From contig CAMRUG010000003.1 of the NCBI GenBank assembly GCA_947053925.1, positions 64,205 to 128,204 on the forward strand: a stretch of 64,000 nt of DNA. The letters run 5' to 3'. Positions 5,846-57,471 of the stretch are shown one piece after another. The translations under genes were made by a program, and so were the position numbers. Origin of the DNA: an uncultured Clostridia bacterium (GTDB lineage: Bacteria > Bacillota > Clostridia > Christensenellales > CAG-314). The number at the start of each line of letters is the position of its first letter. The stretch's first letter is position 1. The notes beneath the pieces are model-generated. The model ran no database searches. It saw only the letters and a list, made by a program, of their open reading frames with translations, and was not told the DNA's origin.

Positions 5846-6349
5846 TTAGCTCTGATTTATCAATGCAGCATAGACTAATTCCGAAACTTGAAGCGACGTA
5901 AGACCGTCTGTTTCTATTGCAATATCCTGCGCACAAAGGGCGTAAACGGCATTTCTTTGCGCTAAAATTTTGTCCAGCTCACTTATACTCAAATTATCGA
6001 ATAACGGCCGTGAAGTCCCGTCAAGGCGGTCAAAAACGGTTTTAGCGTTTACTTTAAGCCAAACAATGGTAGATTCTTTTGCCAACGCTTCAAATTCTTT
6101 AAGCGTTGCGCTACCGCCGCCGCAAGCGATTACTGTATTTTCGATACCGTAACACGAATCAAGCGCACGACTTTCAAAATTGCGGAATTCCTTTTCGCCG
6201 CATTCAGTAAAAATATCCTTTATCGAACAACCTGCCAACCGTGTTATTTCATCGTCTATATCTACAAAATCATACCCCAGTTTTTTTGCTAAAATTTTTC
6301 CTACGGACGTCTTGTATGAACAAGCAAAGCCTATTAAAACGATTTTCAT
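5846..6349 (-). CDS. aroK: shikimate kinase (non-canonical Walker A)
   Basis: 167 aa with overall AroK layout (MKIVLIGF...KTSVGKILAKKLGYDFVDIDDEI, ...GGG). Last gene of the aro operon; it overlaps aroQ by 4 nt. The P-loop reads GFACSYKT instead of GxxGxGK(S/T). Confidence 0.75.
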   Translation of the reverse strand: MKIVLIGFACSYKTSVGKILAKKLGYDFVDIDDEITRLAGCSIKDIFTECGEKEFRNFESRALDSCYGIENTVIACGGGSATLKEFEALAKESTIVWLKVNAKTVFDRLDGTSRPLFDNLSISELDKILAQRNAVYALCAQDIAIETDGLTSLQVSELVYAALINQS

Positions 6350-16696: not shown

Positions 16697-16727
16697 AGTA
16701 TACCCCCCCCCGATTAGAAAAAGTCAA
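16697..16727 (-). promoter_or_regulatory. sigmaA-like promoter with a G9 tract in the -35/-10 spacer
   Basis: The minus strand reads TTGACT-t-tttctaatc-GGGGGGGGG-TATACT, a 19-nt spacer. A GGAGG RBS and the ATG at 16664 lie downstream. Confidence 0.55.
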
Positions 16728-38884: not shown

Positions 38885-40107
38885 ATTTAAAATCTATATG
38901 GAATTACAGCATTCTCAAACACAACGGCAGCTGCACAGCCTGCACCCAAGTTTTAGACCTATATGAAATTACACCATTCTCAAACCCTTTCCATTGCGCA
39001 GTAAAATCGTCTAATGTTTTAGACCTATATGAAATTACACCATTCTCAAACTGCTGTACTTGTCGATGAGCAGTTCTCCGCGTTTTAGACCTATATGAAA
39101 TTACACCATTCTCAAACGCTTATTGACAGAAAGCGCACAAAGATATTGTTTTAGACCTATATGAAATTACACCATTCTCAAACGGAAGAATAGGCAATAT
39201 TCGGTATCCGGCAGTTTTAGACCTATATGAAATTACACCATTCTCAAACACTACTGATACCAGGATAAAACAGTCTTGCGTTTTAGACCTATATGAAATT
39301 ACACCATTCTCAAACTATCAACAAACACAAGCCTATAAATAATACGTTTTAGACCTATATGAAATTACACCATTCTCAAACAAGATTAGTACCAGGATTA
39401 ATGTTATCTTTGTTTTAGACCTATATGAAATTACACCATTCTCAAACCTTTGAATAACTTGTCCGTTGTATGTCAGTGTTTTAGACCTATATGAAATTAC
39501 ACCATTCTCAAACCTTGTTTGTCTTGATTTGCGAAGAATTCTAGTTTTAGACCTATATGAAATTACACCATTCTCAAACAGTTCATTTGGCGGTTGATGT
39601 CGTTTTGTTGTTTTAGACCTATATGAAATTACACCATTCTCAAACTTGCGTTTGCGGAGTATGGCTTTGCGTTTAGTTTTAGACCTATATGAAATTACAC
39701 CATTCTCAAACTTGATGAATGCGGTGGATATGCCGAAAATTGTTTTAGACCTATATGAAATTACACCATTCTCAAACGAGTGGGTATTGGTAAACCCCGA
39801 TATTGTGGTTTTAGACCTATATGAAATTACACCATTCTCAAACCCGCGCCCTGTCTTCTTTGCTTGGCGGTAAGTTTTAGACCTATATGAAATTACACCA
39901 TTCTCAAACTCGCCAGTATATCTTACGCCTTTTAATTTCGTTTTAGACCTATATGAAATTACACCATTCTCAAACCATAGGTTTGAATTTGGGCGAAAAA
40001 TTGAAGTTTTAGACCTATATGAAATTACACCATTCTCAAACACGAGAGCCGATTATATCCACACAACAGGCGTTTTAGACCTATATGAAATTACACCATT
40101 CTCAAAC
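38885..40107 (-). CRISPR. main type II-A CRISPR array (19 repeats, 18 spacers)
   Basis: 18 identical 36-nt repeats (plus strand gttttagacctatatgaaattacaccattctcaaac; transcribed sense GTTTGAGAATGGTGTAATTTCATATAGGTCTAAAAC), first at 40072-40107 and last at 38950-38985. There are 17 spacers of 30 nt and one of 29 nt. The terminal repeat at 38885-38920 is degenerate (6 mismatches, mostly at its 3' end in the transcribed sense). Confidence 0.97.
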
Positions 40108-40215
40108 CTCAAATTTGAAAATTTTTACGATTACCGGTCGCATTAATTCAATATAGGCATTTATAATTTACTAAATTTATCTTAAAAAGTCAAACAATCT
40201 AACGTGTTCATTACC
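40108..40215 (-). promoter_or_regulatory. CRISPR leader with candidate promoter
   Basis: AT-rich 108 nt between the csn2 stop and the first repeat. The minus strand has TTGACT (40188-40193), a 17-nt spacer and TAAATT (40165-40170). Confidence 0.5.
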
Positions 40216-40902
40216 TTAGTCGGTTTGCATAACAGGCAAATACTCGCACCTGTCTTCGTCATAAACGATTATTGCTTCGTCTTTGATTTTTGTTTTGAAA
40301 CTGCTGTCAATACACAAAATACTTATGCCGTTTATCTGACAATGCTTAAACAGCAACGACAATTGCTCGCTGTTTAAATAGCTTCTTAGACTTATACAAA
40401 CGATAACTTTTATTGACGTAAGGCGTGAAAGCAACGAAACGTAATCGCACAACTTTTCAAACAAATTATCGTATTCCTCTAAAAATGCTACGCTTATTGC
40501 TTTTAATAATATTGTAATATCAGCATCGCGTACTGTTAACGGATAATCGATATCTAATGTCAAATCGTTAAAATACATTGTTAACGACGTCAATAGTTCG
40601 TTAGTTGCAACGATATGATTTTCGTCAAATGCTAATTTTTTTAAGTTATCCTGTAATATTGCGGTCGCTTTTTTATCGTTTAAGTTCATATTGTGATAAT
40701 CAGCCAAATATACCGCATATTTGGCAAAATCAATATCCTGGCCTCCGCTTATAAGTCTCCACTTGCCCTGCTGCCCTTTGACTTGCATACACATATCGCC
40801 TGTAAAAGAAGCAAACATTGCCGAATGTTCGCAAATCAATGACCATGCGTTGCTAATATCAAAGTCTATTTCGTTTTCTAAATCGTAGTTTATTAACTTC
40901 AT
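40216..40902 (-). CDS. csn2: Csn2 (type II-A adaptation protein)
   Basis: 228-aa ORF immediately after cas2 and before the leader. Its size and position match short Csn2, and its layout resembles S. pyogenes Csn2 by eye. Confidence 0.8.
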   Translation of the reverse strand: MKLINYDLENEIDFDISNAWSLICEHSAMFASFTGDMCMQVKGQQGKWRLISGGQDIDFAKYAVYLADYHNMNLNDKKATAILQDNLKKLAFDENHIVATNELLTSLTMYFNDLTLDIDYPLTVRDADITILLKAISVAFLEEYDNLFEKLCDYVSLLSRLTSIKVIVCISLRSYLNSEQLSLLFKHCQINGISILCIDSSFKTKIKDEAIIVYDEDRCEYLPVMQTD

Positions 40903-41219
40903 ACCAATATGTATTTGTCTACAGAATCTATTACCTGACTTTTATTTTCACCAACCAAATATACGATATCTGCAAATTGTTTTTCGGTAATTACCATAAT
41001 CTGCACCGTTCCCTTTGCAGGTACTTGGTTTGCCAAATGCCGTTTAACTAGTTCTACCGTAGAACCGTTAAGCGCCAATTTAAAATAAACTGACTTTTGC
41101 ATCATTATAAAACCTTCTTTTATCAAAAAGGTTCTAAATTGCCTATATGCGGTTCTATCAGCCGCCGTTTCCGTAGGCAAATCGAAAAATACAATTATTC
41201 TCATAAATCTAAAACTCAT
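40899..41219 (-). CDS. cas2: Cas2
   Basis: MSFRFMRIIVFFDLPTETAADRTAYRQFRTFLIKEGFIMMQKSVYFKL closely parallels S. pyogenes Cas2 (MSYRYMRMILMFDMPT...). I chose the start at 41219 rather than the track start 41240. Confidence 0.9.
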   Translation of the reverse strand: MSFRFMRIIVFFDLPTETAADRTAYRQFRTFLIKEGFIMMQKSVYFKLALNGSTVELVKRHLANQVPAKGTVQIMVITEKQFADIVYLVGENKSQVIDSVDKYILV

Positions 41220-42084
41220 AACCGCAAAATTGCAACGCATTTACATCGCCGTTTTCTATTGCATAAATAACACGTTTAACATACAACCCTATGGCATTGT
41301 TTAAAGAATACTTCTTATTATCAAATAGTACTTCCTTGTTTATCAACTGCTGTAAAATATGCTTGTGCTCTTTATTAAAACTTTTAACATCCATTTGCAA
41401 AACCGTTCTGTCTACAAACGGACGAAAAGGCTCCATAAGGTCGCAACTCAAATTGAAGTGATTGTATTCGTTGTTGTGATTTATTCCGAAATTTGCAGAA
41501 TAGCCGTTAACTGCAACTTCGCGGTTAAATGCCGATAACAGTATACTGTAACCGTAATCTAACGCGGCATTGGTATCTGTTGCTATTTGCCTTGTAAAAT
41601 CGTTACCGAAAACAGCATTAAAGTAAACTTTCGCCGCGTGTCCTTCTCTGTTGGTAATGTCGCCTTGACGGACATCCGCCATATAATTAAACAACATATC
41701 TGCTTGAGTTTGATGACCGTACTTTTTAAGTACTAACATTTGCTGATAAATTTTATGCCGAACAATTTCCGTCCATATAATTTGTTTATTATATTCTGCC
41801 CAAGCAATCTGCTTTCGCAAACAGCCGCTGGTATCGTAACGTAACGAAGTGGGAACAAGTTCAAAAAACGGATTGTGCTTTTCATCGCAAAATATAACTT
41901 TAATTTTACGACGCGTAAGTTCACACAATAAACTGGCCGTAACCGCTACGGCAACACTTTCTACTATCAACACAGATATTTCCGAAAGATGAATTTTGAC
42001 AGTTTCTTCTCCGCGGCAAACCAAATAATCCAAACGGTGTTCAAGCTTGCATCTGTTTGTTACCGTTACCACGCGCCAACTCAA
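41209..42084 (-). CDS. cas1: Cas1 (type II)
   Basis: 291 aa with the type II Cas1 layout. It overlaps the cas9 stop by 4 nt, and cas2 follows. Confidence 0.93.
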   Translation of the reverse strand: MSWRVVTVTNRCKLEHRLDYLVCRGEETVKIHLSEISVLIVESVAVAVTASLLCELTRRKIKVIFCDEKHNPFFELVPTSLRYDTSGCLRKQIAWAEYNKQIIWTEIVRHKIYQQMLVLKKYGHQTQADMLFNYMADVRQGDITNREGHAAKVYFNAVFGNDFTRQIATDTNAALDYGYSILLSAFNREVAVNGYSANFGINHNNEYNHFNLSCDLMEPFRPFVDRTVLQMDVKSFNKEHKHILQQLINKEVLFDNKKYSLNNAIGLYVKRVIYAIENGDVNALQFCGYEF

Positions 42085-45000
42085 CTGTTATTCTCCTTGT
42101 CAAATTGACTCAGCGGTATTTTTTGTTCAAATATGCCTGTTACGGACCTGTGAACGATACTGATATCGTCCAATGATTCAAATACTGAAGAAGTCAATAT
42201 ATTTCCGCAAGACTTTCCTTCTTCTACCAACGATAAATTACTAGTTGTAGCATTGCACTGCAACGCTTTAGCTATCTCTGCTAGCACAACACACTGTTTT
42301 GCACGACATAAATTGGCAAATTTTTGTCTCAAATTTTCAGTCGACAATTTATGTACAAACGATTGAAGACTTGCCGCACCGCTATATTTGGAAGATGACA
42401 GTTTTTCCATAAATACGTCATATAAGATTTTATTCTGTTCCAACGTAATATCGTCATAATCAGTAACGTTATATGTTTGTTTTTGTACGCTTGCTTTATT
42501 GTATTTTTCTACAACGTTTACCACTTTTTTCAGATACCGTTCGGTTTCTTCATCACAGGCATTTTGCTGCGCAATGCGCCAAATAATTCTGTTACCCGTC
42601 ATTGCAGAAAGAGACAATAATGTATTTCCGAACTCAAACATTGTTTGAACCTTTATTCTAGGTATAAGAATTCTAGCATTTTGTAGCCCGCATTTTTCGC
42701 AATAATCAATTCGGCTTTTGTTATCCAATAATTTGTTCGAATCTTTTGCAGTTACGCCCAACAATTTATAGTAACATTTTTCATTTTGTTCCTTTTTAGT
42801 CTGCTTAACTTGGGTATACTTGACCAGCATATAGTACGCACGTGTTTCGCTGATATAACCGCCGTACTTTGCTGTATCGGACATACATTTGTATTTGCGG
42901 TTTGTGCTGTTCTCTCCCTTTAAAGGAACTAAATTAGCATTGTCGGCGTTTTTCTTTTGCAGTGTGGCTTCGAATAACTGTCCTTTTACCACTTTGCTTT
43001 CGCGAGTGAACAGCACTGCATTACTGCGCATTGTTTTTTCGACTTGCGCCATTGTTCCGTCTTCTCCGGCAATCCATGCTACTACAGATTTATTTTTGAC
43101 ATCGTGTTCAAACAGTTTTGCCGGCGAAACGAGTTTCTCTGTAGGATGGTTTTTCATCCAAAATCTTGCGTTATGCTCATAGCGGACATTATAAACGTTA
43201 CCAACCACTATGTTCAAATAAGCGTCCTTTGCGTGATGCAAGTCGTTAAGCTCACGGCACTTTACAAAACGGGATACGCGCTGTTCTCCCATTTGTTTCG
43301 GCATAGCACGGAAGTCGCTGATATTACCTGCTTTTGACCACACAATTTCGCTCTCGGGAAATACACCTTTAAGTAATTCTATTACTTCCTTAGTTGTTTG
43401 ACGCGTTTCGACAAGTTGCCTGTTAATAAAATCGGCAAGTTCATCATCGGTTAACGGTGTGTTACGGGTTAAACGTCTGTATTTCTCCTCACTCATCAAA
43501 CCTTGCTTCTTCAAGACTAGCCATTTGCTCTCCATTTTTTTGCGTACGCTTTCTTCAATGGGATATGTATCCGTTTTAACTGCATTGTGTGTGCGGTATG
43601 TTAACACAAGATTACTATGAATACTGTCGTCTTTTACTTTACTGCGGGGATATATGTGGTCTTTGTCATACAAATGCAAATTATTGTAATCAATAACATC
43701 TCCCGTATAAATATCAATGCCATTTTGCATAAAGTATAAAAACAACTTGGTATTTTGAAGACTTTCCGGCTTGAGTTCACAAAATTGTTTATAAACATTT
43801 TCGTTGAACATATCATCGCGTTGCTCTTTTAGTTTGTCCAGAGCAGCAGACAACATTTGGTAACGCGACGCATTACGTTTGCGTTCTTCTGACTTATCTT
43901 TTTTGCTATTTGTATCGCGTGCAACTTCTACAAATATTTTAGACGGCGCGCGTCCTAGTATATCGGTCAATTCCTTTACTATACATAGAGTCTGCCATAT
44001 TTGCTTTTTAACGGCAGGAGAACAGTATAATGAGTCGACAACATCATACGAAATCCCGCTAGATATATTATCACGAAGTTGATTGAATCCGTCTTTAAAA
44101 CCGTATACTTCGTTATTCCATATTTCCATAAAGTTATACTGACTGTTCCGCATAGCATCTATTATCGACAAAGTATGCAATTCTCCCGTATCGGGATCTG
44201 TTCCGATACGTTTTGTAAGCATTTCTTTAGAATAACGTCCCCAACCTTTAAGAGACAAGCCCTTGATTATACTGATTTGCTGCTCGGTTAAATAGTCAAA
44301 TTCCTTTTTTAAACGCTTTACTAGATTGTTTTTTTTCGGACCAGCTATGGTAGCATATAGAATTATTTTTTCAATATCTTCTCTGTGTTCTTCAACTCCC
44401 CTTACAGAGCCGTCAAATATTTTGACAAACTGATAGTAGGTACGTCGATGAACAGTTGCACCATCGTCAAAACCATCTATTTCAATTTTGTCATTATCTT
44501 CATATACGTTCTGTAATTTTAACCACTGTTTTAAAATTTTTGCAGTAAGTTTGCTTTCTCCATTTGTAGCATAATACTCCGACAATTTCAATTTTAAATC
44601 GACGCTTAAACGCGTGCCGTTTATTCTGATACAGTTAACAACATTGAGAAAAGCAAATTCCTCGTATAAAAGACTACATTTAGGCAAAACCTTTGCGCCG
44701 TCTACATACGGACATTTATTTGTCATACGCTGAACGAAATTATTCTCTGTGGCAAATAAATCAATTTTTTGTTCGTAATTCCAAGGAAGAATTTTGCCGC
44801 TTTCAGAACGTACTATCCAGTATTTGCCGCTATGATTATTTGTAGGACCAACATAATACGGCATTTTAAACGTCAAAAGCGATTTAATTTTGTCGTACGT
44901 TCTAATACCGCTTTTATCAGTTTCATTGATAAAAGCATAACGCGGATATTGGATAATGTTTTTTAAAATCGTTTCCAACTCTGCCAAATTAAGTTGATAC

Positions 45001-46286
45001 GGCAAAGTGGAATTACGTTTACTAACCTGCTTTGGCATAAACGTACCGTCAGCCATATCCGACAAAATACGTTGCACAGTTTCGTCGTTTTGTGCTTGCT
45101 CATACGAAGTTAATATTGATTTGACGTATTTTACGAAATCTTCATAGCTACGACTTTTAGCTGTTTCCAACAACTGCTTATTGCCGTCAACCTTCTTGCC
45201 GAAATTAACTTTACCGCTATAAGCAGTATAGTTAGTTTCTTTGTCGTTCTTTTTAAACATTAAGTCGTAAGTTTCTTGAGGAAAATACTTTTTTAGCACT
45301 CTTTTTAAATCCGCAAGATCTTTACTATGTTTTTTGTACCTTTCTACCATTCCTTCCGACAAAAAACTATAATTGCCCAAAATTGTTTTTAATTGTGCAT
45401 AATCATAAAGTAATTTAGCGTTTTCGATAAGTATATAGTCATCTTGCAACAACTCTCGATATTCCGATTCTTTTGCTTCCCATTCGCAATCGAAAGTAAC
45501 CGACAGCGAAGTTTCAGTGTCGGGAAACAATGCTTTGATCTTAACGGAATTACCCGCTATCAGTTTTAACACTGCTTCTAATCGGCTGTTTTTAGGTGCA
45601 TCAAAACAATCCTTATAACGCTGTGCGCGTTCGGATTTAGTACCTTTTTCGACTAAACAATTTTGGAATTTTTTAATTATTTCCTTGGTCAAATTTAATT
45701 GCTCAACTTTTTCACTACTTGACAAATAACAGGCAATTGAATTCAAAGGCGCCTCAATATTATCAATAACGCTTACGCTATCGCCTTCTTGCAAAAAGTG
45801 CCCGCGGTATTTGATAATATGATGCAACGCCAGATATACCAATCTCGGATCAGGATCGGTCTCGGTCATCATTGCCAACCGTAAATGGTAAATCGTTTTG
45901 TATTTTTTGTAAAATTCTTTATCGGTATAGTCTTTATCGTTAAACAACGAAAACTTAGTCTTTTCACGTTTGTCGCCGTCATATAAATTGCTGTCTGAAA
46001 GACGTGCGAAAAAATTGCCGTCAATTTGATTGATAACGGGCGCAAAAATTTCTTGCAGCAATTCTATACGCCATTTGCGTCGTTCTAATCTTCTGCGAGA
46101 TTCTCGGCTCAAACGTCTGTTACTTGCAGATTGAGCCGAATCAAACAAACGTACGCCCCACAAATTTTTATTATTTGCGCGTAAAAGTTTATAATTAGTA
46201 TCGGTAACCGCCCAGCCGACTGAATCGGTGCCTATATCCAAGCCCAAATAATAATTTTCGTAATTTCTTTTGTTTTTTTGACTCAT
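42081..46286 (-). CDS. cas9: Cas9 (type II-A, 1401 aa)
   Basis: RuvC-I YYLGLDIGTDSVGWAV; an arginine-rich bridge helix (NRRLSRESRRRLERRKWR); HNH YDKDHIYPRSKVKDDSIHSNLVLTYRTHNAVK. The operon continues with cas1-cas2-csn2. Confidence 0.97.
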   Translation of the reverse strand: MSQKNKRNYENYYLGLDIGTDSVGWAVTDTNYKLLRANNKNLWGVRLFDSAQSASNRRLSRESRRRLERRKWRIELLQEIFAPVINQIDGNFFARLSDSNLYDGDKREKTKFSLFNDKDYTDKEFYKKYKTIYHLRLAMMTETDPDPRLVYLALHHIIKYRGHFLQEGDSVSVIDNIEAPLNSIACYLSSSEKVEQLNLTKEIIKKFQNCLVEKGTKSERAQRYKDCFDAPKNSRLEAVLKLIAGNSVKIKALFPDTETSLSVTFDCEWEAKESEYRELLQDDYILIENAKLLYDYAQLKTILGNYSFLSEGMVERYKKHSKDLADLKRVLKKYFPQETYDLMFKKNDKETNYTAYSGKVNFGKKVDGNKQLLETAKSRSYEDFVKYVKSILTSYEQAQNDETVQRILSDMADGTFMPKQVSKRNSTLPYQLNLAELETILKNIIQYPRYAFINETDKSGIRTYDKIKSLLTFKMPYYVGPTNNHSGKYWIVRSESGKILPWNYEQKIDLFATENNFVQRMTNKCPYVDGAKVLPKCSLLYEEFAFLNVVNCIRINGTRLSVDLKLKLSEYYATNGESKLTAKILKQWLKLQNVYEDNDKIEIDGFDDGATVHRRTYYQFVKIFDGSVRGVEEHREDIEKIILYATIAGPKKNNLVKRLKKEFDYLTEQQISIIKGLSLKGWGRYSKEMLTKRIGTDPDTGELHTLSIIDAMRNSQYNFMEIWNNEVYGFKDGFNQLRDNISSGISYDVVDSLYCSPAVKKQIWQTLCIVKELTDILGRAPSKIFVEVARDTNSKKDKSEERKRNASRYQMLSAALDKLKEQRDDMFNENVYKQFCELKPESLQNTKLFLYFMQNGIDIYTGDVIDYNNLHLYDKDHIYPRSKVKDDSIHSNLVLTYRTHNAVKTDTYPIEESVRKKMESKWLVLKKQGLMSEEKYRRLTRNTPLTDDELADFINRQLVETRQTTKEVIELLKGVFPESEIVWSKAGNISDFRAMPKQMGEQRVSRFVKCRELNDLHHAKDAYLNIVVGNVYNVRYEHNARFWMKNHPTEKLVSPAKLFEHDVKNKSVVAWIAGEDGTMAQVEKTMRSNAVLFTRESKVVKGQLFEATLQKKNADNANLVPLKGENSTNRKYKCMSDTAKYGGYISETRAYYMLVKYTQVKQTKKEQNEKCYYKLLGVTAKDSNKLLDNKSRIDYCEKCGLQNARILIPRIKVQTMFEFGNTLLSLSAMTGNRIIWRIAQQNACDEETERYLKKVVNVVEKYNKASVQKQTYNVTDYDDITLEQNKILYDVFMEKLSSSKYSGAASLQSFVHKLSTENLRQKFANLCRAKQCVVLAEIAKALQCNATTSNLSLVEEGKSCGNILTSSVFESLDDISIVHRSVTGIFEQKIPLSQFDKENNS

Positions 46287-48833: not shown

Positions 48834-48909
48834 GACGATTAACTCAGCTGGGAGAGTGTCTCCTTGACGTGGAGGAAGTCACAGGTTCGAGTCCTGTATC
48901 GTCCACCAC
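48834..48909 (+). tRNA. tRNA-Val (GAC)
   Basis: It folds by hand into a 76-nt cloverleaf: GGACGAT/ATCGTCC acceptor, ACTC/GAGT D-stem, anticodon loop TTGACGT, T-arm ACAGG-TTCGAGT-CCTGT and an encoded CCA. Confidence 0.9.
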
Positions 48910-50328
48910 TCGTTCGTAAAGCGAACCCGTAGAAAAGTCTGTTACATTGTAACGGACTTTTCCTTTTTTATTGCCGTAATAAATTACTTTATTGACAAAA
49001 GTATCTATAAGTGCCTGTTTGTTTTCGGTTTTGGAATAGTCAAGGTGTTTGAAACGCTTTACGTAATAGCGCAAATCTTCCAACTTAAAATCAAGAATTT
49101 CAGACTCTTCAACTTCAAGTTGCAGTTCGACTTCTTTACGCTCTTTTTCGAGTTGGTCTAATTTTTCAAGAATCGTATTTTTCGCCTTGCCGTCCATAAG
49201 CAGTTGTAAAAGATTATCCGTTGCTTTTTTATTGGCGGTAAGCAATTTTTCTAATCTCGGTACGTTTCCGTTTTTTAGTTCGTTCTGTAAAATTTCGTAT
49301 AGTGCTTGCGAAATCTTATCGATTAGTTTATCGTCAAGCAATTTAAGCGTTTCCTGAATAACTGCATTTTCAATCAAGTCTTTTGAAACTGTTTCTTGCT
49401 TGCAACCGTCTTTTTTGCCGAAACAACGATAATAAGCATATTTCTTGCCTGTATGACTTGTTCCGCTTGCGCCCGTCATAGAACTCTCGCATAGACCGCA
49501 AAAGAGTTTTGTAGTCAACAAAAACGGCTCTCTCGCCTTCTTGGATGAGGGGGCTTTATTGTTTCGTTCTAAACGGCTTTGTACGGCTTCGTAAAGCTCA
49601 TCGGATATAATTTGCGGAATGCCGCCTTTAATTTCTTTATCGTGAAAAATATAATAACCGAGATAGCGGCGATTATGTAGAATACGTTTTACCGTACCGT
49701 GACCGATTGTTTTGCCTTTGTTAAAAATCTTATTGTCAAGCAAAAACTCCTCTATTTCAACAATAGTTTTCCCGTCTGCGTACATTTCAAAAATTTTACG
49801 AACGAATACGGCTTCGCTTTCGTTGATTTGATAGTGTTTGTCTTCGTCTATATAATAACCGAGCGGAATAGCGCCGCCGAAGAATTGACATTTGCTTGCC
49901 GATACTTCGATACCGCGTTTTATCTTCTGCGAGAGTTCGACGGAATAATATTCCGCCATACTTTCGAGTACGCCTTCTACAAGAATACCGCTTGCGTCTT
50001 CGGTTATGTTTTCTTTGGCAGATAAAACGCGCACGCCGTTCTTTTTCAATTTTGCTTTATAAGTTGCGCTATCGTAGCGGTTGCGTGCAAAACGGTCCAA
50101 CTGATAAACAAGAACATACTTGAAAGTCTTTTTCTTGCTATCTTCAATCATACGCAAAAATTCGGGACGCTTATCCGTAGTTCCCGTCAATGCTCTGTCT
50201 ATGTATTCCGCTATTACATTGTAGTCGTTACGCTTGGCAAATTCGTAACACTCTTTTAACTGACCTTCAATTGATTGCTCCGTTTGCGAATGGGAACTGA
50301 ACCGTGCATATATTACGACGTTTACCAT
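48844..50328 (-). CDS. large serine recombinase
   Basis: MVNVVIYARFSSHSQTEQSIEGQ (catalytic Ser motif), DRFARN, a recombinase domain, the zinc ribbon CGLCESSMTG...YYRCFGKKDGC and a coiled-coil. Start at ATG 50328 with a GGAGG-type RBS. The last 22 codons (stop included) overlap tRNA-Val. Confidence 0.9.
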   Translation of the reverse strand: MVNVVIYARFSSHSQTEQSIEGQLKECYEFAKRNDYNVIAEYIDRALTGTTDKRPEFLRMIEDSKKKTFKYVLVYQLDRFARNRYDSATYKAKLKKNGVRVLSAKENITEDASGILVEGVLESMAEYYSVELSQKIKRGIEVSASKCQFFGGAIPLGYYIDEDKHYQINESEAVFVRKIFEMYADGKTIVEIEEFLLDNKIFNKGKTIGHGTVKRILHNRRYLGYYIFHDKEIKGGIPQIISDELYEAVQSRLERNNKAPSSKKAREPFLLTTKLFCGLCESSMTGASGTSHTGKKYAYYRCFGKKDGCKQETVSKDLIENAVIQETLKLLDDKLIDKISQALYEILQNELKNGNVPRLEKLLTANKKATDNLLQLLMDGKAKNTILEKLDQLEKERKEVELQLEVEESEILDFKLEDLRYYVKRFKHLDYSKTENKQALIDTFVNKVIYYGNKKGKVRYNVTDFSTGSLYERVVDDTGLEPVTSSTSRRHSPS

Positions 50329-50352
50329 AAAAATTACTCCTTCCAAAAAGCA

Positions 50353-50423
50353 AAAACGGGTATCCTGTTTCTTTCCGAAATCGTAGCGAAAATCACGAAG
50401 TGAGTCTCGCTCTTATCCTGTTC
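50353..50423 (-). repeat. ~71-nt leader motif, copy 1 (upstream of the recombinase)
   Basis: In the gene sense: gaacaggataag-AGCGA-18 nt-TCGCT-...-aaacagg-ata-cccgttt-TTT, then RBS and ATG. It is the inverted counterpart of 51600-51669. Confidence 0.7.
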
Positions 50424-50498
50424 AAAAATTTAGGACTTTTTCGGCTTTTTAGAGTCAATTATATTTTATCACTTTTACCTAAAAACATCAACAAATAC

Positions 50499-50527
50499 TT
50501 GGCATTTTTTATAAAAAGTGTTATAAT
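50499..50527 (+). promoter_or_regulatory. sigmaA-type promoter (TTGGCA-17-TATAAT)
   Basis: Near-consensus hexamers ~35 nt upstream of the XRE gene. Confidence 0.55.
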
Positions 50528-50560
50528 CTTTACAAGAGTTAAAAGGAGCAATATATTGAT

Positions 50561-50758
50561 ATGACTTTTTCGGAAAAAGTGAAAGCCGTTCGCAATCAAT
50601 TACAATTAACGCAGGAAGAACTCGCCCACAAATTAGGCGTTAGTTTTGCAACGGTTAATCGTTGGGAAAGCGGTTCGTATAAACCGAGCAAAATGGGACA
50701 AAGAATGTTTGAAGAATTTGTAGAAAAGAACAATTTAAATCAGGAGAATAACGAATGA
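50561..50758 (+). CDS. XRE-family helix-turn-helix protein
   Basis: VRNQLQLTQEELAHKLGVSFATVNRWESGSYKPS. Confidence 0.75.
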   Translation: MTFSEKVKAVRNQLQLTQEELAHKLGVSFATVNRWESGSYKPSKMGQRMFEEFVEKNNLNQENNE

Positions 50759-51564
50759 AAAAGTCAATCAACGTACAAGGTTACCCTATCGGAATAAAGG
50801 GTATCGAAAAAGAAAATTATATTTCTTTAACGGATATTGCACGCTTTAAAAATCCGGAAGCGCCTGCCGACGTGGTTAAAAATTGGATGCGTACACGCGC
50901 AACGATAGACTTTCTCGGTCTATGGGAAGAGCTCAATAATCCAAATGTTAACGTGGTCGAAATCGACCAGTTTAAAAATCAAGCGGGGGCAAATGCTTTT
51001 ACGATGTCTCCAAAAAAATGGATTGAAGCGACAAATGCAATCGGTATCTATTCTTCTTCCGGCAAATACGGCGGCGGAACTTTTGCACATCAAGATATAG
51101 CGTTTGAGTTTGCAAGTTGGGTTTCGGCTGAATTTAAGTTGTATCTAATCAAAGAATTCCAGCGGCTTAAAATCAACGAACAAAAAGAACTTGAATGGAA
51201 CAGCAAGCGCGAACTATCAAAAGTTAACTACCATATCCATACCGATGCAATTAAAAGTAATTTAGTCGTTCCGACTTTGAACGATTGGCAAGTCAGTTTC
51301 GTATATGCGTCAGAAGCGGATATACTTAACACTGCTCTATTCGGTAAAACAGCGGCAGATTGGCGAAAAGAAAATCCCGATAAAAAGGGAAACATACGCG
51401 ACTATGCAACCATGGAACAATTGCTTGTAATAGCAAATATGGAAAGTTATAACGCTATTTTAATCGCACAGGGATTACCGCAATCCGAACGATTGAAACT
51501 ATTAAACGCAATGGCTGACAGCCAAATGCAAGTATTGCTGAATAGTCCTAAAAGATTGAAATAA
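50755..51564 (+). CDS. KilA-N domain DNA-binding protein
   Basis: ISLTDIARFKNPEAPADVVKNWMRTRATIDFLGLWEELNNP ... FAHQDIAFEFASWVSAEFKLYLIKEF is typical of KilA-N proteins found next to R-M genes. It overlaps the XRE gene by 4 nt. Confidence 0.6.
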   Translation: MKKSINVQGYPIGIKGIEKENYISLTDIARFKNPEAPADVVKNWMRTRATIDFLGLWEELNNPNVNVVEIDQFKNQAGANAFTMSPKKWIEATNAIGIYSSSGKYGGGTFAHQDIAFEFASWVSAEFKLYLIKEFQRLKINEQKELEWNSKRELSKVNYHIHTDAIKSNLVVPTLNDWQVSFVYASEADILNTALFGKTAADWRKENPDKKGNIRDYATMEQLLVIANMESYNAILIAQGLPQSERLKLLNAMADSQMQVLLNSPKRLK

Positions 51565-51599
51565 GTGAATCAGAGTACTTAAAAATCCCCTTATTTAGG

Positions 51600-51669
51600 G
51601 AACAGGATAAAGGTGGGATTCACTTGGTGTGCATGCCACCCACATAAACACAAACGGGATACCCGTTTT
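51600..51669 (+). repeat. ~70-nt leader motif, copy 2 (upstream of the R-M gene)
   Basis: gaacaggataaa-GGTGG-19 nt-CCACC-...-aaacggg-ata-cccgttt-T, then RBS and ATG 51690. The 30-nt box is 24/30 identical to copy 1, and the hairpin is conserved. Confidence 0.7.
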
Positions 51670-51689
51670 GAGAACAAAAAGGAAATACC

Positions 51690-54600
51690 ATGATTAACAA
51701 AAGTAACTTTAAAGAATTGATTATAAAACTTGGCTTTACGGATAACGGCACATTATTTGTAAAAGAATTCGCGCAATTTTCTTGTTCGATGTCCGTCGAC
51801 TTTGTAAATGAAAAATTAATCTATCCTACTTTTATCGTCGGCAGAGAGCGCAACGATTCTTTTAGCCAAGACGAAAATTTCGTTGTGTTTGAATGTGTAA
51901 ACCGACTTTTAGAAAAAGGTTATCGTCCCGAACATATCGAACTCGAAAAGGTTTGGACTTTGGGACATATTCAAAAAAGCGGGCGTGCCGATATTTGCGT
52001 TTATAATAAAGATAAGTCCGCTATGCTTTTCATCATAGAATGTAAATCTGCAGGTAGAGAGTATAATAAAGCCTTAAAAAACACTTTAAATGACGGCGCA
52101 CAGTTATTTTCCTATTGGCAACAAGAACAATCGACTAAATGGCTTTGCCTTTATCAGTCTGATTATGTGAATAATGAAGTTTGTTACAAAGCGACTACAA
52201 TCAATTGCTCTGACGATAAAAATATAGAAGATTTAGCGAAGAAAGATAAAACCATAAAACTTTATTCTTCCGCCTTTACTGCACCGGAAAAATATTTAGT
52301 ATGGAAAGAAACTTATAATCTTCAAATTCTTGATAATATCATATTTGCAGAAGATACGGTTGCATACGAAATCGGAATAAGGCCTTTACGTAAAAAAGAT
52401 TTAAAAGACTTTTCGCCGGAAGATAAAATAGTAAACCGTTTTGAAGAAATATTGCGCCACAATAACGTAAGCGATAAAGAAAATGCCTTTAATCGGTTAA
52501 TAGCGTTGTTTATTTGTAAACTCGTCGATGAAATAGAAAAATCCGATACAGACGAAGTAGAATTTCAATATAAACTCGGCACAGACACATATGAAAGTCT
52601 GCAAGACAGATTGCAAAGACTTCATAAACAAGGTATGGACGAGTTTATGAAAGAAAAGATTTTCTATGTAGAAAACGATTACGCCGAAAAATTGTTTTTG
52701 CAATACACCGGTTCTAAAAGAAAACAAGCGATAGAAGATTTAAGTAAAACAATAAGAATTTTAAAATTCTATACAAATAACGATTTTGCTTTTAAAGATG
52801 TACATAACGAAGAACTTTTCTTCCAAAACGGTAAAATCTTAGTCGAAGTCGTTCAACTTTTTGAAAATTACAGAATTGTCTATCCTGCAAAACATCAATT
52901 TTTGGGGGATTTGTTCGAACAGTTATTAAATAAAGGTTTTAAGCAAAACGAAGGGCAATTTTTTACTCCTACTCCCATAACCCGTTTTATATGGGATAGT
53001 TTGCCTATTGAAAAAATAATTAAGAACAAAGACAAATACAATTTACCGAGAGTTATCGACTATGCTTGCGGCGCTGGGCATTTCTTAACCGAAGGCGTTG
53101 AAGCAATCAATAGTTATTTTGAACATATCGGTAATGCGGCATTAGTGCAAAATAATGCGTGGGTTGAAACCAATATTTATGGGATAGAGAAGGACTACCG
53201 TTTGGCTCGTGTGTCAAAAGTTTCAATGTTTATGAACGGTGCGGGCGGAGCAAATATTGTTTTTGGGGACGGACTTGAAAACTATCCCGAAAAACAGATT
53301 GAAGCAAATTCGTTTGATATTTTGGTTGCTAATCCGCCGTATTCCGTTGAAGCTTTTAAGCCACATTTAAAATTAAAAAATAATTCTTTTGAATTGTTAA
53401 AAATTATATCTAATAACGGATCGGAAATAGAAACGCTATTTGTTGAACGAATTGCTCAACTTGTAAAGCCAAAAGGTATCGCCGCCGTATTGTTACCTTC
53501 TCCGATACTCTCAAATACTTCATCAAGTTACATTGTAGCACGAGAACAGTTTTTAAAACATTTTCTTATTCGCGCAATTGTCAGTTTAGGTTCGAAAACT
53601 TTTGGGGCAACCGGTACAAATACGGTAATTATGTTTTTGGAAAAACGTGATGAACCGCCCATACAAGAGAAGTTAGTTGAAGATAGTGCTAATGCAATCC
53701 TTTCTAATCTTAATTTAACGGATTGGATTGATAGCGAAATCAAATTACAATATTTATCTCAAATCGGCGTTGCTGATGACGAATACGCTGTATTGATTGA
53801 CGAAAATCAAGATATAAATTTATTGCAAGAATCCGATTATTTTAAAGGATATTTTACCGAATATAACAAAACTAAAAGAAAACAAACGGTAAGAGCGTTT
53901 ATAAAAGAACGGGAATTTAATAAACTCAAATATTTTGCTTTGGTTTGCAAACAAGAAACTTTAATAATCACAGCTCCTGCCGATAATATAAAACAAAAAG
54001 AATTTTTAGGATATGATTGGAGTAATCGCAAGGGTGCCGAAGGAATCGTTATCAATAAATTCGGCGGAATGATGTTTGATGAACAGAACCGATATGCAGA
54101 GAACACATTAGCGTTTCTTATCAAACAATCATTTTTTAACAATAAGTTATCATTGCTAGATAAAGAACATTATTATGCGTATTACGAATTAAAAAATTTA
54201 ATAGATTTTAGTAGATTAGAATTTCATAAAGCGATTAAGATTGTTAATGACAAAAAATTAACAATCAGTAGCAAATACAATTTATTACCGTTGGGACAAA
54301 TCTGCGATGTTCGTATAGGTGGTACTCCTTCTAGAAAAAATATGCAATACTTTACAGGAACTAACTTATGGGTTACCATTGCAGAAATGAATGGTCAAGT
54401 GATTAACGATACTAAAGAGAAAATTACTGAACAAGCAATAAAAAATTCTAACGTAAAACTTATTCCGAAAGGTACAACTCTGTTAAGTTTTAAGTTGAGT
54501 ATTGGGAAAACGGCAATAGCAGGTGTTGATTTATACACAAATGAAGCAATAGCCGCACTTATACCGCTTACAAAAAATTTATTGAATGCGTATTTATTCC

Positions 54601-54857
54601 ATTTATTTCACAGTGGTTTAATAGATTTAACGAATGTTGGAAACAAAGCATTTGGTAAAAGTTTAAATAGCACATATTTAAAAGAAGAAGTAAAAATCCC
54701 AGTACCCCCGCTTGATATTCAAGAAAAGATAATTGCGGAATGTCAAAAAGTTGATGAAGAATATAACTCTACACGCATGACTATCGAAGAATATCGTAGA
54801 AAGATTGAGAAACTATTTCGCGAACTCGACGTAATTTCTGGGGGGGGTATGAGTTAA
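51690..54857 (+). CDS. fused restriction endonuclease - N6-adenine methyltransferase - specificity (TRD1) protein, type IIB/IIG-like; frame ends just after a G8 tract
   Basis: N-terminal PD-(D/E)xK candidate (GRADICVY ... FIIECKS); methylase motif I DYACGAGHFL and motif IV LVANPPYS. The C-terminal HsdS-like TRD is LPLGQICDVRIGGTPSRKN...NEAIAALIP, followed by a conserved helix. Confidence 0.85.
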   Translation: MINKSNFKELIIKLGFTDNGTLFVKEFAQFSCSMSVDFVNEKLIYPTFIVGRERNDSFSQDENFVVFECVNRLLEKGYRPEHIELEKVWTLGHIQKSGRADICVYNKDKSAMLFIIECKSAGREYNKALKNTLNDGAQLFSYWQQEQSTKWLCLYQSDYVNNEVCYKATTINCSDDKNIEDLAKKDKTIKLYSSAFTAPEKYLVWKETYNLQILDNIIFAEDTVAYEIGIRPLRKKDLKDFSPEDKIVNRFEEILRHNNVSDKENAFNRLIALFICKLVDEIEKSDTDEVEFQYKLGTDTYESLQDRLQRLHKQGMDEFMKEKIFYVENDYAEKLFLQYTGSKRKQAIEDLSKTIRILKFYTNNDFAFKDVHNEELFFQNGKILVEVVQLFENYRIVYPAKHQFLGDLFEQLLNKGFKQNEGQFFTPTPITRFIWDSLPIEKIIKNKDKYNLPRVIDYACGAGHFLTEGVEAINSYFEHIGNAALVQNNAWVETNIYGIEKDYRLARVSKVSMFMNGAGGANIVFGDGLENYPEKQIEANSFDILVANPPYSVEAFKPHLKLKNNSFELLKIISNNGSEIETLFVERIAQLVKPKGIAAVLLPSPILSNTSSSYIVAREQFLKHFLIRAIVSLGSKTFGATGTNTVIMFLEKRDEPPIQEKLVEDSANAILSNLNLTDWIDSEIKLQYLSQIGVADDEYAVLIDENQDINLLQESDYFKGYFTEYNKTKRKQTVRAFIKEREFNKLKYFALVCKQETLIITAPADNIKQKEFLGYDWSNRKGAEGIVINKFGGMMFDEQNRYAENTLAFLIKQSFFNNKLSLLDKEHYYAYYELKNLIDFSRLEFHKAIKIVNDKKLTISSKYNLLPLGQICDVRIGGTPSRKNMQYFTGTNLWVTIAEMNGQVINDTKEKITEQAIKNSNVKLIPKGTTLLSFKLSIGKTAIAGVDLYTNEAIAALIPLTKNLLNAYLFHLFHSGLIDLTNVGNKAFGKSLNSTYLKEEVKIPVPPLDIQEKIIAECQKVDEEYNSTRMTIEEYRRKIEKLFRELDVISGGGMS

Positions 54858-54883
54858 GACTATCTGACAGAGAACTATTCAAT

Positions 54884-55363
54884 TTGTTTATCGGAAAGCG
54901 CGTATTAAATAGCGAACTTGTCGAAACAGGATTGCCCGTATTTAGTGCTAATACTTATGAGCCTTTCGGGTATATAAACTCGGATATAGTTAAAGACTTC
55001 TCTACACCTTCGGTTATTTGGGGAATTGACGGGGATTGGATGACGAATACTCTCCCTTCAAATTATGCGTTTTATCCAACGGACCATTGCGGTGTAATTC
55101 GTTTGAAAAAAAGCAATGTAATTGAATACAAATATTTGGCTTGGTTGCTTTTGCAAGAAGGTAAAAAGGCGCGGTTTTCAAGGTCGTATCGGGCTTCAAT
55201 TGATAGGGTAAGTCAAATAAAATTAGCCGTTCCTCCATATGAAAAACAAAAAGAATTTGTTGCTCAAGTTGATGTTTTAGAACAACAAATAGCAGAATTG
55301 GAATCAAAGCTGGGTGCAATAGATAAAGAAAAACAAGACATTATTTCTAAATATTTAAACTGA
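54884..55363 (+). CDS. HsdS-like target recognition domain 2 plus conserved helix (probably the displaced C-terminus of the upstream R-M protein)
   Basis: FIGKRVLNSELVETGLPVFSAN ... TDHCGVIRLK ... KYLAWLLL, then coiled-coil QVDVLEQQIAELESKL. This frame is open from 54809 through the G8 tract (54840-54847). The track start is a TTG, and I saw no RBS upstream of it. Confidence 0.7.
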   Translation: MFIGKRVLNSELVETGLPVFSANTYEPFGYINSDIVKDFSTPSVIWGIDGDWMTNTLPSNYAFYPTDHCGVIRLKKSNVIEYKYLAWLLLQEGKKARFSRSYRASIDRVSQIKLAVPPYEKQKEFVAQVDVLEQQIAELESKLGAIDKEKQDIISKYLN

Positions 55364-55573
55364 TTGGAGTTAAATATGGAACAATCAAAATGGCTGGACG
55401 AAGCATTGGCTTGTTATGAAGAAGAAAAGTCAAAAAACCCAGACTATCTTTCTTTCGATAACACAATGATTAAAGCCTTTGCCCGCCGAATTGTCAGACA
55501 AATAAAAGAACAAATGAAACTCGACAACGAACAATGTGAATTATTGTTAAATGCTATTTTTAAAAGGAGATAA
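55364..55573 (+). CDS. small hypothetical protein
   Basis: 69-aa acidic/helical ORF tightly packed between the S-like ORF and the ImmA-like gene. Confidence 0.4.
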   Translation: MELNMEQSKWLDEALACYEEEKSKNPDYLSFDNTMIKAFARRIVRQIKEQMKLDNEQCELLLNAIFKRR

Positions 55574-55579
55574 TGAGAA

Positions 55580-56737
55580 ATGGCAGAAGCTCTTACAGGC
55601 GTAAACGGCTCAATTATAAAATGGGCTCGCGAATATTACAACATGTCACCAATGGATGCTGCTTACACTATTGGTATTGATTTAGAGCGATATGAAAAAT
55701 GGGAAGAAGGGACAGAGTTTCCCACGTATGCAAAGTTAAAGCAAATAAGTGCTGTATTCCATAAGCCCTGCGCCATTTTCTTCTTTCCTACTCCACCAGA
55801 ATTGCCAAGTATAAAAGGTGATTTGAGAACTCTTCCATCTTCTATTGTGGACACTTTAAGCAAGAATGTAGTTCTTCAATTTGAGAAAGCTAAAGTATAT
55901 CAACTTAATTTGCAAGAGTTATATGGTAGTCGTGAAAGCATAATTGAAAAGTATCAAAATTTACAATTGGACAGAAATGCGCTATGCAAAACATTAAGAC
56001 AGCAATTTGAATTTCCAGTTAGCGCACAAAAAGCAAGAAAATCTGATAAAGTAGTTTTTGAAATATTTAGAGAAAAATTTTATAATTTAGGCATTTATGT
56101 TTTTAAAGATGCTTTTAAAGATAATAGCATATCTGGACTTTGTGTCAACGATAAAAATTATCCTATAATTATAATAAATAATGCGATGTCGTTTGCACGA
56201 CAAAATTTCACATTGTTTCACGAGTTATATCATCTTATTTCTAATACGAGTGGCGTGGAAATTATTCGCGATGAATACTATAATGAACTTAATGACTCTC
56301 AAAAAGCAATAGAGAAAGAATGTGATTGTTTTGCAAATGAATTTTTAGTGCCTACAACAGATTTCGAACTTGAATTAAAAAAACAAGAAATTACAGAAAA
56401 AAGAATTGCAGAATTAGCTACATTGTATTCTGTTAGTAAAGAAGCAATTATGTATAAGCTATATGCGCTTCATATTATTTCAGCAGATGATTATGCCGCA
56501 TTGAAAGAATATTTCTACGGAGATGCTATTCGAAGTAAACAAAATAATGGCGACACAAAGAGCAGTGGGAATTACTATTTTACAAAACTTTCATATTTGG
56601 GGCATCAATATACTGGCGAAGTATTTAGTCAATATTTCTCAGGCAAAATTGATACTTACCGCGCAAGTGAAATGCTATCAAGTAAAGTAGAACATCTCTC
56701 TAAATTGGAAGCGACATTTTTTAGGGGGATTAAATAA
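55580..56737 (+). CDS. ImmA/IrrE-family HTH-Zn-metallopeptidase (COG2856-like)
   Basis: N-terminal XRE-type HTH region (IIKWAREYYNMSPMDAAYTIGIDLERYEKWEEG) and HExxH in FTLFHELYHLISN. Confidence 0.8.
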   Translation: MAEALTGVNGSIIKWAREYYNMSPMDAAYTIGIDLERYEKWEEGTEFPTYAKLKQISAVFHKPCAIFFFPTPPELPSIKGDLRTLPSSIVDTLSKNVVLQFEKAKVYQLNLQELYGSRESIIEKYQNLQLDRNALCKTLRQQFEFPVSAQKARKSDKVVFEIFREKFYNLGIYVFKDAFKDNSISGLCVNDKNYPIIIINNAMSFARQNFTLFHELYHLISNTSGVEIIRDEYYNELNDSQKAIEKECDCFANEFLVPTTDFELELKKQEITEKRIAELATLYSVSKEAIMYKLYALHIISADDYAALKEYFYGDAIRSKQNNGDTKSSGNYYFTKLSYLGHQYTGEVFSQYFSGKIDTYRASEMLSSKVEHLSKLEATFFRGIK

Positions 56738-57219
56738 TGGTTTATGTTATTGATACTTGTGTCTTCCGCAAACTTTTAGATCATTTACCGCGCAAAGGTA
56801 GCTACTTTGAAAAAGTATGGAATAAATTTGAAAATGGAATTATAGCAAAAAATTATATTTCTGTAGATGAATGCTTTAATGAACTAGATAAGCATTACGA
56901 TGATAAAAGTGCAAATGCTCTATGGCTAAAAAAATATAAGAATATGTTCCTATCTCCTACAAACGCGGAATCTTTAATTATAAAGGATATTTTTACATCT
57001 GCCAAAATGAGAGAAAGCGTACATACTAAAAATATTCTTGATAATAGACCTTCCGCGGATGTGTTTTTAGCCGCAAAGGCAAAAACAACAAACGCCATTG
57101 TGGTAACAGTAGAATCATACAAACCTAATTCTGCACAATTACCAAATATATGCGAAAAAATTGGAGTTCAATTTATTAGTTATGACGATTTTATGGAAAT
57201 CTTAATGCAAGATGAATGA
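56737..57219 (+). CDS. DUF4411 (PIN-like) domain protein
   Basis: MVYVIDTCVF N-terminus (PIN-like acidic start). Its size and obligate pairing downstream of an ImmA/IrrE gene match DUF4411. The start overlaps the upstream stop. Confidence 0.55.
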   Translation: MVYVIDTCVFRKLLDHLPRKGSYFEKVWNKFENGIIAKNYISVDECFNELDKHYDDKSANALWLKKYKNMFLSPTNAESLIIKDIFTSAKMRESVHTKNILDNRPSADVFLAAKAKTTNAIVVTVESYKPNSAQLPNICEKIGVQFISYDDFMEILMQDE

Positions 57220-57450
57220 TTCATCAATCCACGCGTTTCGTCCGTTTGTAATTAAAGTTAGGTTCGTTTTTAAGAACGAGCGTTCCACCAAGCGCAGACT
57301 TGCTTATTAGTCGCAACAGATAAGGTACTGAAAACAGTACCTTTTTCTATTGTTTCCTTTTACTGCGTCTGCTTTATCTTAATGATATACGGATAACGAA
57401 ATAATGTAGCGCTCCACTTTGTTTCGCTTACCGTTGCTTAGGCAATCGGA

Positions 57451-57471
57451 CGAGTCCTGTATCGTCCACCA
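57451..57471 (+). repeat. attR core: duplicated 3' end of tRNA-Val
   Basis: cgagtcctgtatcgtccacca is identical to 48889-48909. Confidence 0.85.

Follow-up and report, generated by a model that had tools for sequence, protein, structure and literature searches.

Does a run of eight G that divides a restriction-modification (RM) gene exactly between the halves of its specificity module mark a broken gene, or a switch between two forms of one enzyme? The question is raised by a locus in a stretch of 64,000 nt (hereafter the window) from an uncultured Clostridia bacterium (assembly GCA_947053925.1, contig CAMRUG010000003.1, positions 64,205 to 128,204 of the forward strand). In its present state the gene yields open reading frame (ORF) 1 (51690..54857, + strand), a 1055-aa protein with a nuclease, a gamma-class N6-adenine methylase, a first target recognition domain (TRD1) and a conserved helical region (CR1). 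A second target recognition domain and its own conserved region (TRD2 and CR2, YELRLSD...ISKYLN*; 54848..55363, + strand) follow intact, one base off the ORF1 frame. At the CR1/TRD2 junction lies a G8 homopolymer (54840-54847, + strand, by direct count), which is very probably a slippage tract and a heritable switch between a two-TRD and a one-TRD protein. The window is currently in the truncated state.

Reading frames and domains at the junction

ORF1 ends in ...LFRELDVIS-GGG-MS, the out-of-frame tail being Met-Ser, and its TAA stop (54855..54857, + strand) lies 10 nt past the last G; an initial annotation of the window, made from the sequence alone, had placed both the tract and the stop correctly to the base. 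Its further claim that the frame of the next ORF (ORF2) is open from 54809 was borne out by a frame check, since that frame, which closes at 55361-55363 and whose earliest start-type codon is the annotated start, TTG 54884, has no stop from there across the whole G tract. One added G (G9) gives a fusion of 1224 aa, reading ...ELDVISGGGYELRLSDRELFNLFIGKRV..., and removal of two (G6) gives one of 1223 aa, in agreement with the roughly 1220 aa that had been predicted for 9 or 6 G. According to the reading-frame computation G7, G8, G10 and G11 truncate the protein and G9 fuses it, and the non-fusing lengths all stop after 1-2 codons, G7 with ...GGV* and G10 with ...GGGV*. Apart from the frameshift there is no lesion in ORF1 or in the displaced TRD2. 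The tract had also been called striking for this DNA, and it is indeed the only G run of at least 6 in the 64-kb window, where base composition would lead one to expect about 0.056 runs of at least 8 G; GGG is the least used glycine codon (7%) in the long ORFs of the window, so that the homopolymer is unlike what codon usage would yield.

The domain content proposed for ORF1 is supported by Pfam matches, motifs and invariant residues. The N-terminal PD-(D/E)xK nuclease domain (aa 56-172; 51855..52205, + strand) is matched by Pfam HSDR_N_2 over aa 73-131 (28.7 bits against a cut-off of 25) and aligns with the N-terminus of the BsaXI RM subunit (D101...E117-x-K119); its motif residues D101 (51990-51992, + strand), E117 and K119 (both within 52038-52046, + strand) are invariant in 50 homologues. 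The gamma-class N6-adenine methyltransferase domain (aa 403-659; 52896..53666, + strand) matches Pfam N6_Mtase at aa 403-656 (E = 2.7e-31) and harbors motif I, DYACGAG (aa 457-463; 53058-53078, + strand), and motif IV, NPPY (aa 548-551; 53331-53342, + strand). The HsdS-like TRD1 (aa 860-1002; 54267..54695, + strand) is supported by matches to Methylase_S and PDB 1yf2, and CR1 (aa 1003-1050; 54696..54839, + strand), which ends in ...LFRELDVIS, by model helices and family conservation. The AlphaFold2 model of ORF1 is of moderate quality (pLDDT 72, pTM 0.56) and served solely for the fold search and for placing the CR1 helices, predicted at aa 1008-1027 and 1032-1045; the tract-encoded glycines 1051-1053 come next.

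In the fused reading two Methylase_S stretches appear, the first match covering aa 865-1023, and both the reading with one added G and the 1231-aa protein of a sister element (P0001) hold two HsdS-like TRDs in one chain, each with a conserved helix after it. In the sequence as it stands, TRD2 and CR2 are out of frame by one base and the product has one TRD. The specificity module matches a type I S subunit (PDB 1yf2), and no ATP-dependent translocase or helicase domain was found among the Pfam, NCBIfam and PADLOC matches of the gene product. TRD1 and TRD2 show no sequence relationship to each other, from which a bipartite and asymmetric site is expected for the full-length enzyme. A single PADLOC profile, REase_MTase_IIG (1271 positions), is shared out between ORF1 (1-1066) and ORF2 (1105-1270), which indicates that both ORFs are pieces of one family member. 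The nearest solved structure by sequence is the BsaXI RM subunit (E = 7e-38), also the top hit by fold when the ORF1 model was searched with Foldseek (E = 3e-27, about 900 columns). The suggestion that the fused form would have the organisation of AloI, CjeI and TstI is thus upheld by module order, by a size of about 1240 aa and by a closest solved relative that is itself type IIB.

Tract length in near-identical elements and across the family

The RM gene is carried on an 8.6-kb integrative island (48888-57471) in the 3' end of a tRNA-Val(GAC) gene, and a sister island with equal gene order, 92-94% DNA identity and a swapped TRD1 has the same flanks at the junction (...GAACTCGACGTgATTTCT-Gn-TATGAGTTAAGA). 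Copies of the sister island carry G9 in L082, L083 and L090 (loci are given by L number), where the protein is fused (1231 aa), G10 in L089 and L092-L094, where it is split (1061 aa, a product indexed in 40 collection blocks), and G11 in L095 and L096, where it is split as well (1063 aa). The fused 9-G form predicted by the initial annotation is therefore a natural one, found in the sister island between flanks identical to those of the window. Copies with G9, G10 and G11 differ by 0-3 substitutions per 2.7-6.2 kb (>99.9% identity across about 6 kb), and L089 and L090 are separated over 2666 nt by one gap, in the tract, and 0 mismatches. The same was seen in a third lineage, in which L084 (SRR33566669, G8, split) and L097 (SRR33566654, G9, fused), contigs of 5829 and 5830 nt from runs of adjacent accession, differ by one gap and 0 mismatches over 5830 nt. 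Each alternative length of the sister lineage recurs across many independent samples, and in the 90%-identity cluster to which the window protein belongs the products of G8, G9, G10 and G11 lie on roughly 14, 29, 31 and 6 contigs, respectively. Samples with the element also include ERR12553418 and ERR5035236. Tract changes far outpace substitutions and both out-of-frame states occur, the pattern that a contingency locus leaves in a population.

A search with the fused protein led to thousands of homologues, of which the best 120 are mostly 1220-1260 aa long with 100% query cover; about one fifth of these 120 measure 1026-1136 aa, cover 83-86% of the query and end a few residues past GG or GGG. 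In this family a fused protein of about 1240 aa is the usual form. For the survey of the junction, 80 loci were taken from one-genome-per-species contigs and further loci were added, giving 81 non-redundant loci, in which the end of CR1 served to locate the junction and the hypervariable TRD2 played no part. The 80 initial loci belong to Bacillota, Bacteroidota, Actinotignum, Treponema, Synergistaceae, Wolinella, Planctomycetia and other metagenome-assembled genomes (MAGs), and this spread over several phyla points to horizontal transfer. A tract of G6-G14 sits exactly at the CR1/TRD2 junction in 44 of the 81 (25 ON, that is in frame, 17 OFF, L089, which was counted as OFF in the Fisher test, and the unclassified L079). 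Frameshifts were present in 18 of 43 loci with long tracts and in 2 of 31 with short or interrupted ones (Fisher p = 6e-4), the in-frame loci numbering 25 and 29 (the latter with, e.g., GGTGGG or GGCGGG), so that the split arrangement is tied to the homopolymer; related genomes with two ORFs and no homopolymer, which would have spoken against the proposed switch, are accordingly rare. In the classified OFF loci with a tract of at least 6 G the displaced TRD2 frame stays open for 148-178 codons. A second G/C run of at least 7 inside the gene, comparable to the second switch of Helicobacter pylori, was found in no locus in the 730 kb scanned, and all other runs of that length fall outside the gene.

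In four genomes (L024, L049, L059 and L067) the gene ends right after CR1 and is followed by unrelated DNA with no TRD2; to judge from their sequences, these are natural one-TRD versions of the enzyme. Their junctions lie at 6255, 6150, 4071 and 6156, respectively, and the gene is followed in L024 by a terminator-like hairpin and in L059 by an ORF of 622 aa that has a ribosome-binding site of its own. The longest tract of the survey, an out-of-frame G14, belongs to a Wolinella MAG (L058, at about 6189). In IMG/VR a pattern scan matched the window-type junction 0 times and a protein-based scan gave three loci, one of them with G8 at the junction, so the family is not mainly phage-borne.

One gene and possibly two specificities

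In the mechanism that we propose, the G8 run would be a hypermutable contingency tract whose length is altered by single bases through slipped-strand mispairing in replication. With 9 G (or 6 or 12) the cell would make the 1224-aa single-chain type IIB enzyme, nuclease-methylase-TRD1-CR1-TRD2-CR2 in the layout of AloI, TstI and CjeI, predicted to recognise a bipartite site that is asymmetric. At the other lengths translation would stop 1-2 codons past the glycines, with the tail MS at 8 or 11 G and the tail V at 7 or 10 G, and leave nuclease-methylase-TRD1-CR1, a protein that would most likely still be active and pair via its CR1 helices into a homodimer of two RM modules and two TRD1 copies. 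Such a homodimer would have the layout of HaeIV, with the 2RM:2TRD ratio found in BcgI and BsaXI, and would act on a symmetric site made of the TRD1 half-site, so that the tract would toggle specificity and do more than turn the enzyme off. For the truncated form, activity, dimerisation and specificity are argued by analogy, and we judge them to be marginally probable. That the truncated protein is active is suggested by the position of the tract right after CR1 and nowhere else in the gene, where a plain ON/OFF switch could sit anywhere, by out-of-frame tails of just 1-2 residues in the window lineage, by the natural members that end after CR1, and by the lack of relationship between TRD1 and TRD2. 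It is also suggested by precedent. In NgoAV a polyG tract in hsdS switches between GCAN8TGC (truncated, palindromic) and GCAN7STCA (fused) (PMC9577141), hsdS genes with repeat tracts always have them between the TRDs, past the coiled coil (PMC7383803), HsdM artificially fused to half an HsdS dimerises and is active (PMC6158711), and HaeIV is given as 2 x R~M~[GAY] on the symmetric GAYN5RTC, whereas the full-length chain of AloI and CjeI presents a puzzling 1RM:2TRD ratio (PMC3874165). With these precedents and the TRD2-less family members, a specificity toggle is plausible, and a contingency tract acting in this way is the best explanation overall, one that we hold on an even balance. The wider claim, that one gene encodes two active RM enzymes, an AloI-type two-TRD unit for an asymmetric site and a HaeIV-type TRD1 homodimer for a symmetric one, as a conserved design of a type IIB family spread horizontally among gut anaerobes of several phyla, is more tentative and in our view falls just short of probable.

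Plain ON/OFF phase variation, in which the truncated product is inactive as in cj0031 and the window is simply OFF, is possible, though well short of probable. It accounts for the same polymorphism as the toggle does, it is the commonest result of repeat tracts in RM genes, cj0031 being an example (PMC4889913), it sidesteps the self-restriction that a change of specificity would bring, and among the long tracts ON copies exceed OFF copies (25 vs 18). An ON/OFF switch nevertheless needs no set position, and the tract is fixed at the CR1/TRD2 boundary in 44/81 loci and never found elsewhere in the gene; TRD2-less members of the family exist as intact genes, truncated HsdS proteins and HsdM-half-HsdS fusions are active in type I systems (PMC9577141, PMC6158711), and HaeIV is a working single-chain type IIB enzyme with one TRD (PMC3874165).

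The remaining explanations have less in their favor. A homopolymer attracts mutations, pseudogenes are common among RM genes and the exact allele of the window is known with G8 only, so the gene could have suffered a fixed loss of function and be decaying with no adaptive switching; decay at the junction does occur in a few relatives, namely L003, where the tract has degenerated and there is an in-frame TAG (GCT TAG GGA GGA, at about 6201) with TRD2 intact and in the same frame, L085 and L086, where G5 is followed by AAGAGG and TRD2 is deleted to a remnant of 28 codons (at about 3213), and L079, which bears a second frameshift. Such decay is unlikely for the window, because ORF1 and the displaced TRD2 show no further lesion, TRD2 is intact in the classified OFF loci with a tract of at least 6 G, the tract is kept across phyla although GGG is the rarest glycine codon, and the occurrence of near-identical elements in the ON and in both OFF frames speaks for frequent change in two directions and not for one-way decay. 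It is still less likely that the DNA stays at G8 and that function is restored by transcriptional slippage, by -1 ribosomal frameshifting or by ORF2 translated from TTG 54884 as a 159-aa half-S protein acting in trans. RNA polymerase slippage can occur at homopolymer runs, the TRD2 frame could be reached by a -1 ribosomal shift or by one extra G in the mRNA, and gene callers do annotate ORF2 as a gene. However, no RNA structure that could stimulate ribosomal frameshifting was found 3' of the tract (z = -0.10), the run G GGG GGG does not fit the canonical slippery-site pattern X XXY YYZ, in the ON relatives this stretch is read as normal coding sequence, and the length variation at DNA level in the relatives makes a recoding device unnecessary. 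Nor does ORF2 look like an independent gene, a point on which the initial annotation was right: no ATG or GTG and no GGAGG-like or other Shine-Dalgarno-like site was found upstream of its TTG, and a search for promoter- and terminator-like sites between ORF1 and ORF2 gave none, their frequency in the region being no higher than in shuffled sequence. Finally, G8 could be a sequencing or assembly error in a gene that is really intact, homopolymers being the classic site of indel errors and the technology behind the window sequence not being stated. This we consider extremely unlikely, as an independent ENA contig (L081, ERZ13632123) is 100% identical to the window over 7643 nt, G8 included, which argues against an assembly error, the exact 1055-aa product of the window is indexed in four collection blocks, and every alternative length of the sister lineage recurs in many independent samples.

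Several points weigh against the specificity toggle and against reading the window itself as a switching locus. The exact allele of the window has been seen with G8 only, in the window and in the independent ENA contig, and its G7, G9, G10 and G11 products are absent from a collection of 15 billion proteins by an exact-match look-up that is blind to variants with a substitution elsewhere; the polymorphism is thereby demonstrated for the sister alleles only. The evidence is drawn mostly from metagenome assemblies of short reads, where the length of a homopolymer is subject to some error, and lengths were compared between assemblies, from which variation within a clone and its reversibility are extrapolated; the rate and reversibility of switching in the window strain are in the same way presumed from a comparison at population level. 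Folding, dimerisation, methylation and cutting by the truncated protein are argued from analogy. AloI and TstI are tetramers, and the effect that truncation would have on assembly is uncertain. A change of specificity in a cutting enzyme would also expose unmethylated host sites to self-restriction, although this may be mitigated, since in TstI the methylation of unmodified sites proceeds about as fast as their cutting (PMC4027205).

A family of single-chain type IIB enzymes in gut commensals from several phyla has a homopolymer built in at the very point where the halves of the specificity module meet, and both tract states are common in public metagenomes. Should the truncated form be active, one gene would give two restriction specificities and two methylomes, and each lineage would possess two alternative methylomes and restriction barriers, possibly a phasevarion, with effects on phage resistance, gene flow and possibly gene regulation in the microbiome. 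The gene would further offer a natural handle on the 1RM:2TRD stoichiometry of two-TRD single-chain type IIB enzymes, which a review of 2014 called a mystery (PMC3874165). For annotation, ORF1 and ORF2 should be treated as one switchable gene and not as a pseudogene with an orphan S fragment. Cultured carriers of the family include Johnsonella ignava ATCC 51276 (G9), Actinotignum schaalii AS1054 (G10) and Tissierellia bacterium KA00581 (G9), all three with the gene in frame.

Genomic setting and known systems

A 21-nt direct repeat marks both ends of the island; its left copy (CGAGTCCTGTATCGTCCACCA; 48888..48908, + strand) is the 3' end of tRNA-Val(GAC) and its right copy lies at 57451..57471 (+ strand). 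The island encodes a large serine recombinase (48844-50346, - strand), whose ORF extends into the tRNA, a helix-turn-helix (HTH) protein (50561-50758), a KilA-N protein matching the PADLOC candidate PDC-S22 with E = 4e-126 (50755-51564), the RM gene, a 65-aa ORF (MEQSKWLDEALACYEEEKSKNPDY...) directly 3' of it (55376-55573), an HTH-M78 peptidase resembling RmrA and CapP (55580-56737) and a DUF4411/PIN-like protein (56737-57219). The neighbourhood that the window and the sister island have in common consists of the serine recombinase, HTH protein, KilA-N protein, RM gene, 65-aa ORF and M78 peptidase. The 65-aa ORF has no Pfam or PADLOC match. Among the closest lineages it is about 89-90% conserved beside the RM gene, also in those whose later genes differ (L084, L097). 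It was considered as an obligate partner of the enzyme and rejected, being confined to these closest lineages and absent from the rest of the family. Within the RM gene, positions 54245-54693, which correspond to TRD1, have no DNA match to L082, whereas the flanks are 92-94% identical. The difference is a clean module swap of TRD1, from which one differing half-site is expected between the islands. Just upstream of the island lies a type II CRISPR-Cas locus (39333-46286) with a cas9 of 1401 aa (42081-46286, - strand) and smaller ORFs downstream of it, and the region around the island looks like a defence hotspot.

The sole other long G/C run of the window is a C9 on the + strand (G9 on the - strand) at 16703-16711. 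On the - strand it falls within the 19-nt spacer between TTGACT (-35-like) and TATACT (-10-like), about 40 nt upstream of an AGGAGGG Shine-Dalgarno sequence and the ATG (16664) of a 595-aa membrane-protein ORF (14877-16664, - strand), and it is a candidate phase-variable locus of the promoter-spacer kind. With the C9 run in a promoter spacer and the G8 at the junction, both long G/C runs of the window stand where changes of length would matter. The host of the window is an uncultured gut bacterium, and the glycine-tRNA ligase of the window (22224-23612) has its nearest named relative, 82% identical, in a 'Candidatus Fimimonas merdipullorum' MAG, other close matches being Clostridia MAGs; the NCBI taxonomy places the genus of 'Candidatus Fimimonas merdipullorum' in Myxococcaceae incertae sedis.

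Among systems that have been described, the type I NgoAV of Neisseria gonorrhoeae, with its polyG tract in hsdS1/hsdS2, and the hsdS genes surveyed by Atack et al. (2020) share with the window a tract placed after the coiled coil and before TRD2 (PMC9577141, PMC7383803). As in the window gene, one tract length of NgoAV gives a two-TRD module and the others give TRD1 and a helix. The truncated NgoAV product dimerises and the site changes from bipartite asymmetric to palindromic (PMC9577141), a behaviour that the window gene may share by analogy. NgoAV differs in having a separate hsdS, an HsdM and an ATP-dependent HsdR, whereas the window gene encodes a single fused polypeptide with no motor domain and does not have the organisation of a type I system; with the specificity module fused to RM, truncation also shifts the RM:TRD ratio from 1:2 to 1:1. 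The tract of the window family is moreover conserved over several phyla and not restricted to a single species. As far as sequence can tell, the device works like an NgoAV-type hsdS switch and is not a type I system.

Closer in layout are the single-chain type IIB enzymes AloI, TstI, PpiI and CjeI, which have the same module order with no translocase and two HsdS-like TRDs (PMC3874165, PMC4027205). AloI-type enzymes measure about 1250 aa in the review (PMC3874165) against 1224-1260 aa in the window family, the likeness to AloI, TstI and CjeI being one of layout and size and not of sequence comparison, and no phase-variable tract was found reported for these four in the literature covered. HaeIV has the architecture predicted for the truncated product and seen in the natural TRD2-less members (PMC3874165); it is likened to them by architecture and is a fixed one-TRD enzyme, whereas the window gene is switchable. 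BsaXI (type IIB, RM and S subunits; PDB 8w0p, 8w2p) shows about 21% identity and has its S subunit as a separate protein.

Phase variation itself has been proven experimentally for cj0031/cj0032, a type IIG gene of Campylobacter jejuni with G9 which, like the window gene, encodes a fused R-M protein (about 1243 aa) and is split by polyG into two annotated ORFs (PMC4889913). It differs in having one TRD, a short asymmetric site and an ON/OFF outcome, and in that the tract is absent from other homologues. In the type IIG JHP1272 / HP1353-HP1354 of H. pylori a second homopolymer close to the 3' end determines whether a C-terminal recognition module is present, which alters specificity and not activity (PMC3936762); these are MmeI-like enzymes with a contiguous site, an extra partial TRD, a C tract and two switches, and their recognition modules are not of the HsdS-like bipartite kind. 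No phase-variable single-chain type IIB or BcgI-like enzyme and no conserved junction tract were found in the literature covered, which left most subscription journals and REBASE outside its scope, and the precedents that were found are of type I, type III and type IIG only. The idea of such a switch is thus familiar from these systems, and what is new is its use in the single-chain type IIB class, where it is strikingly conserved and widespread in gut commensals.

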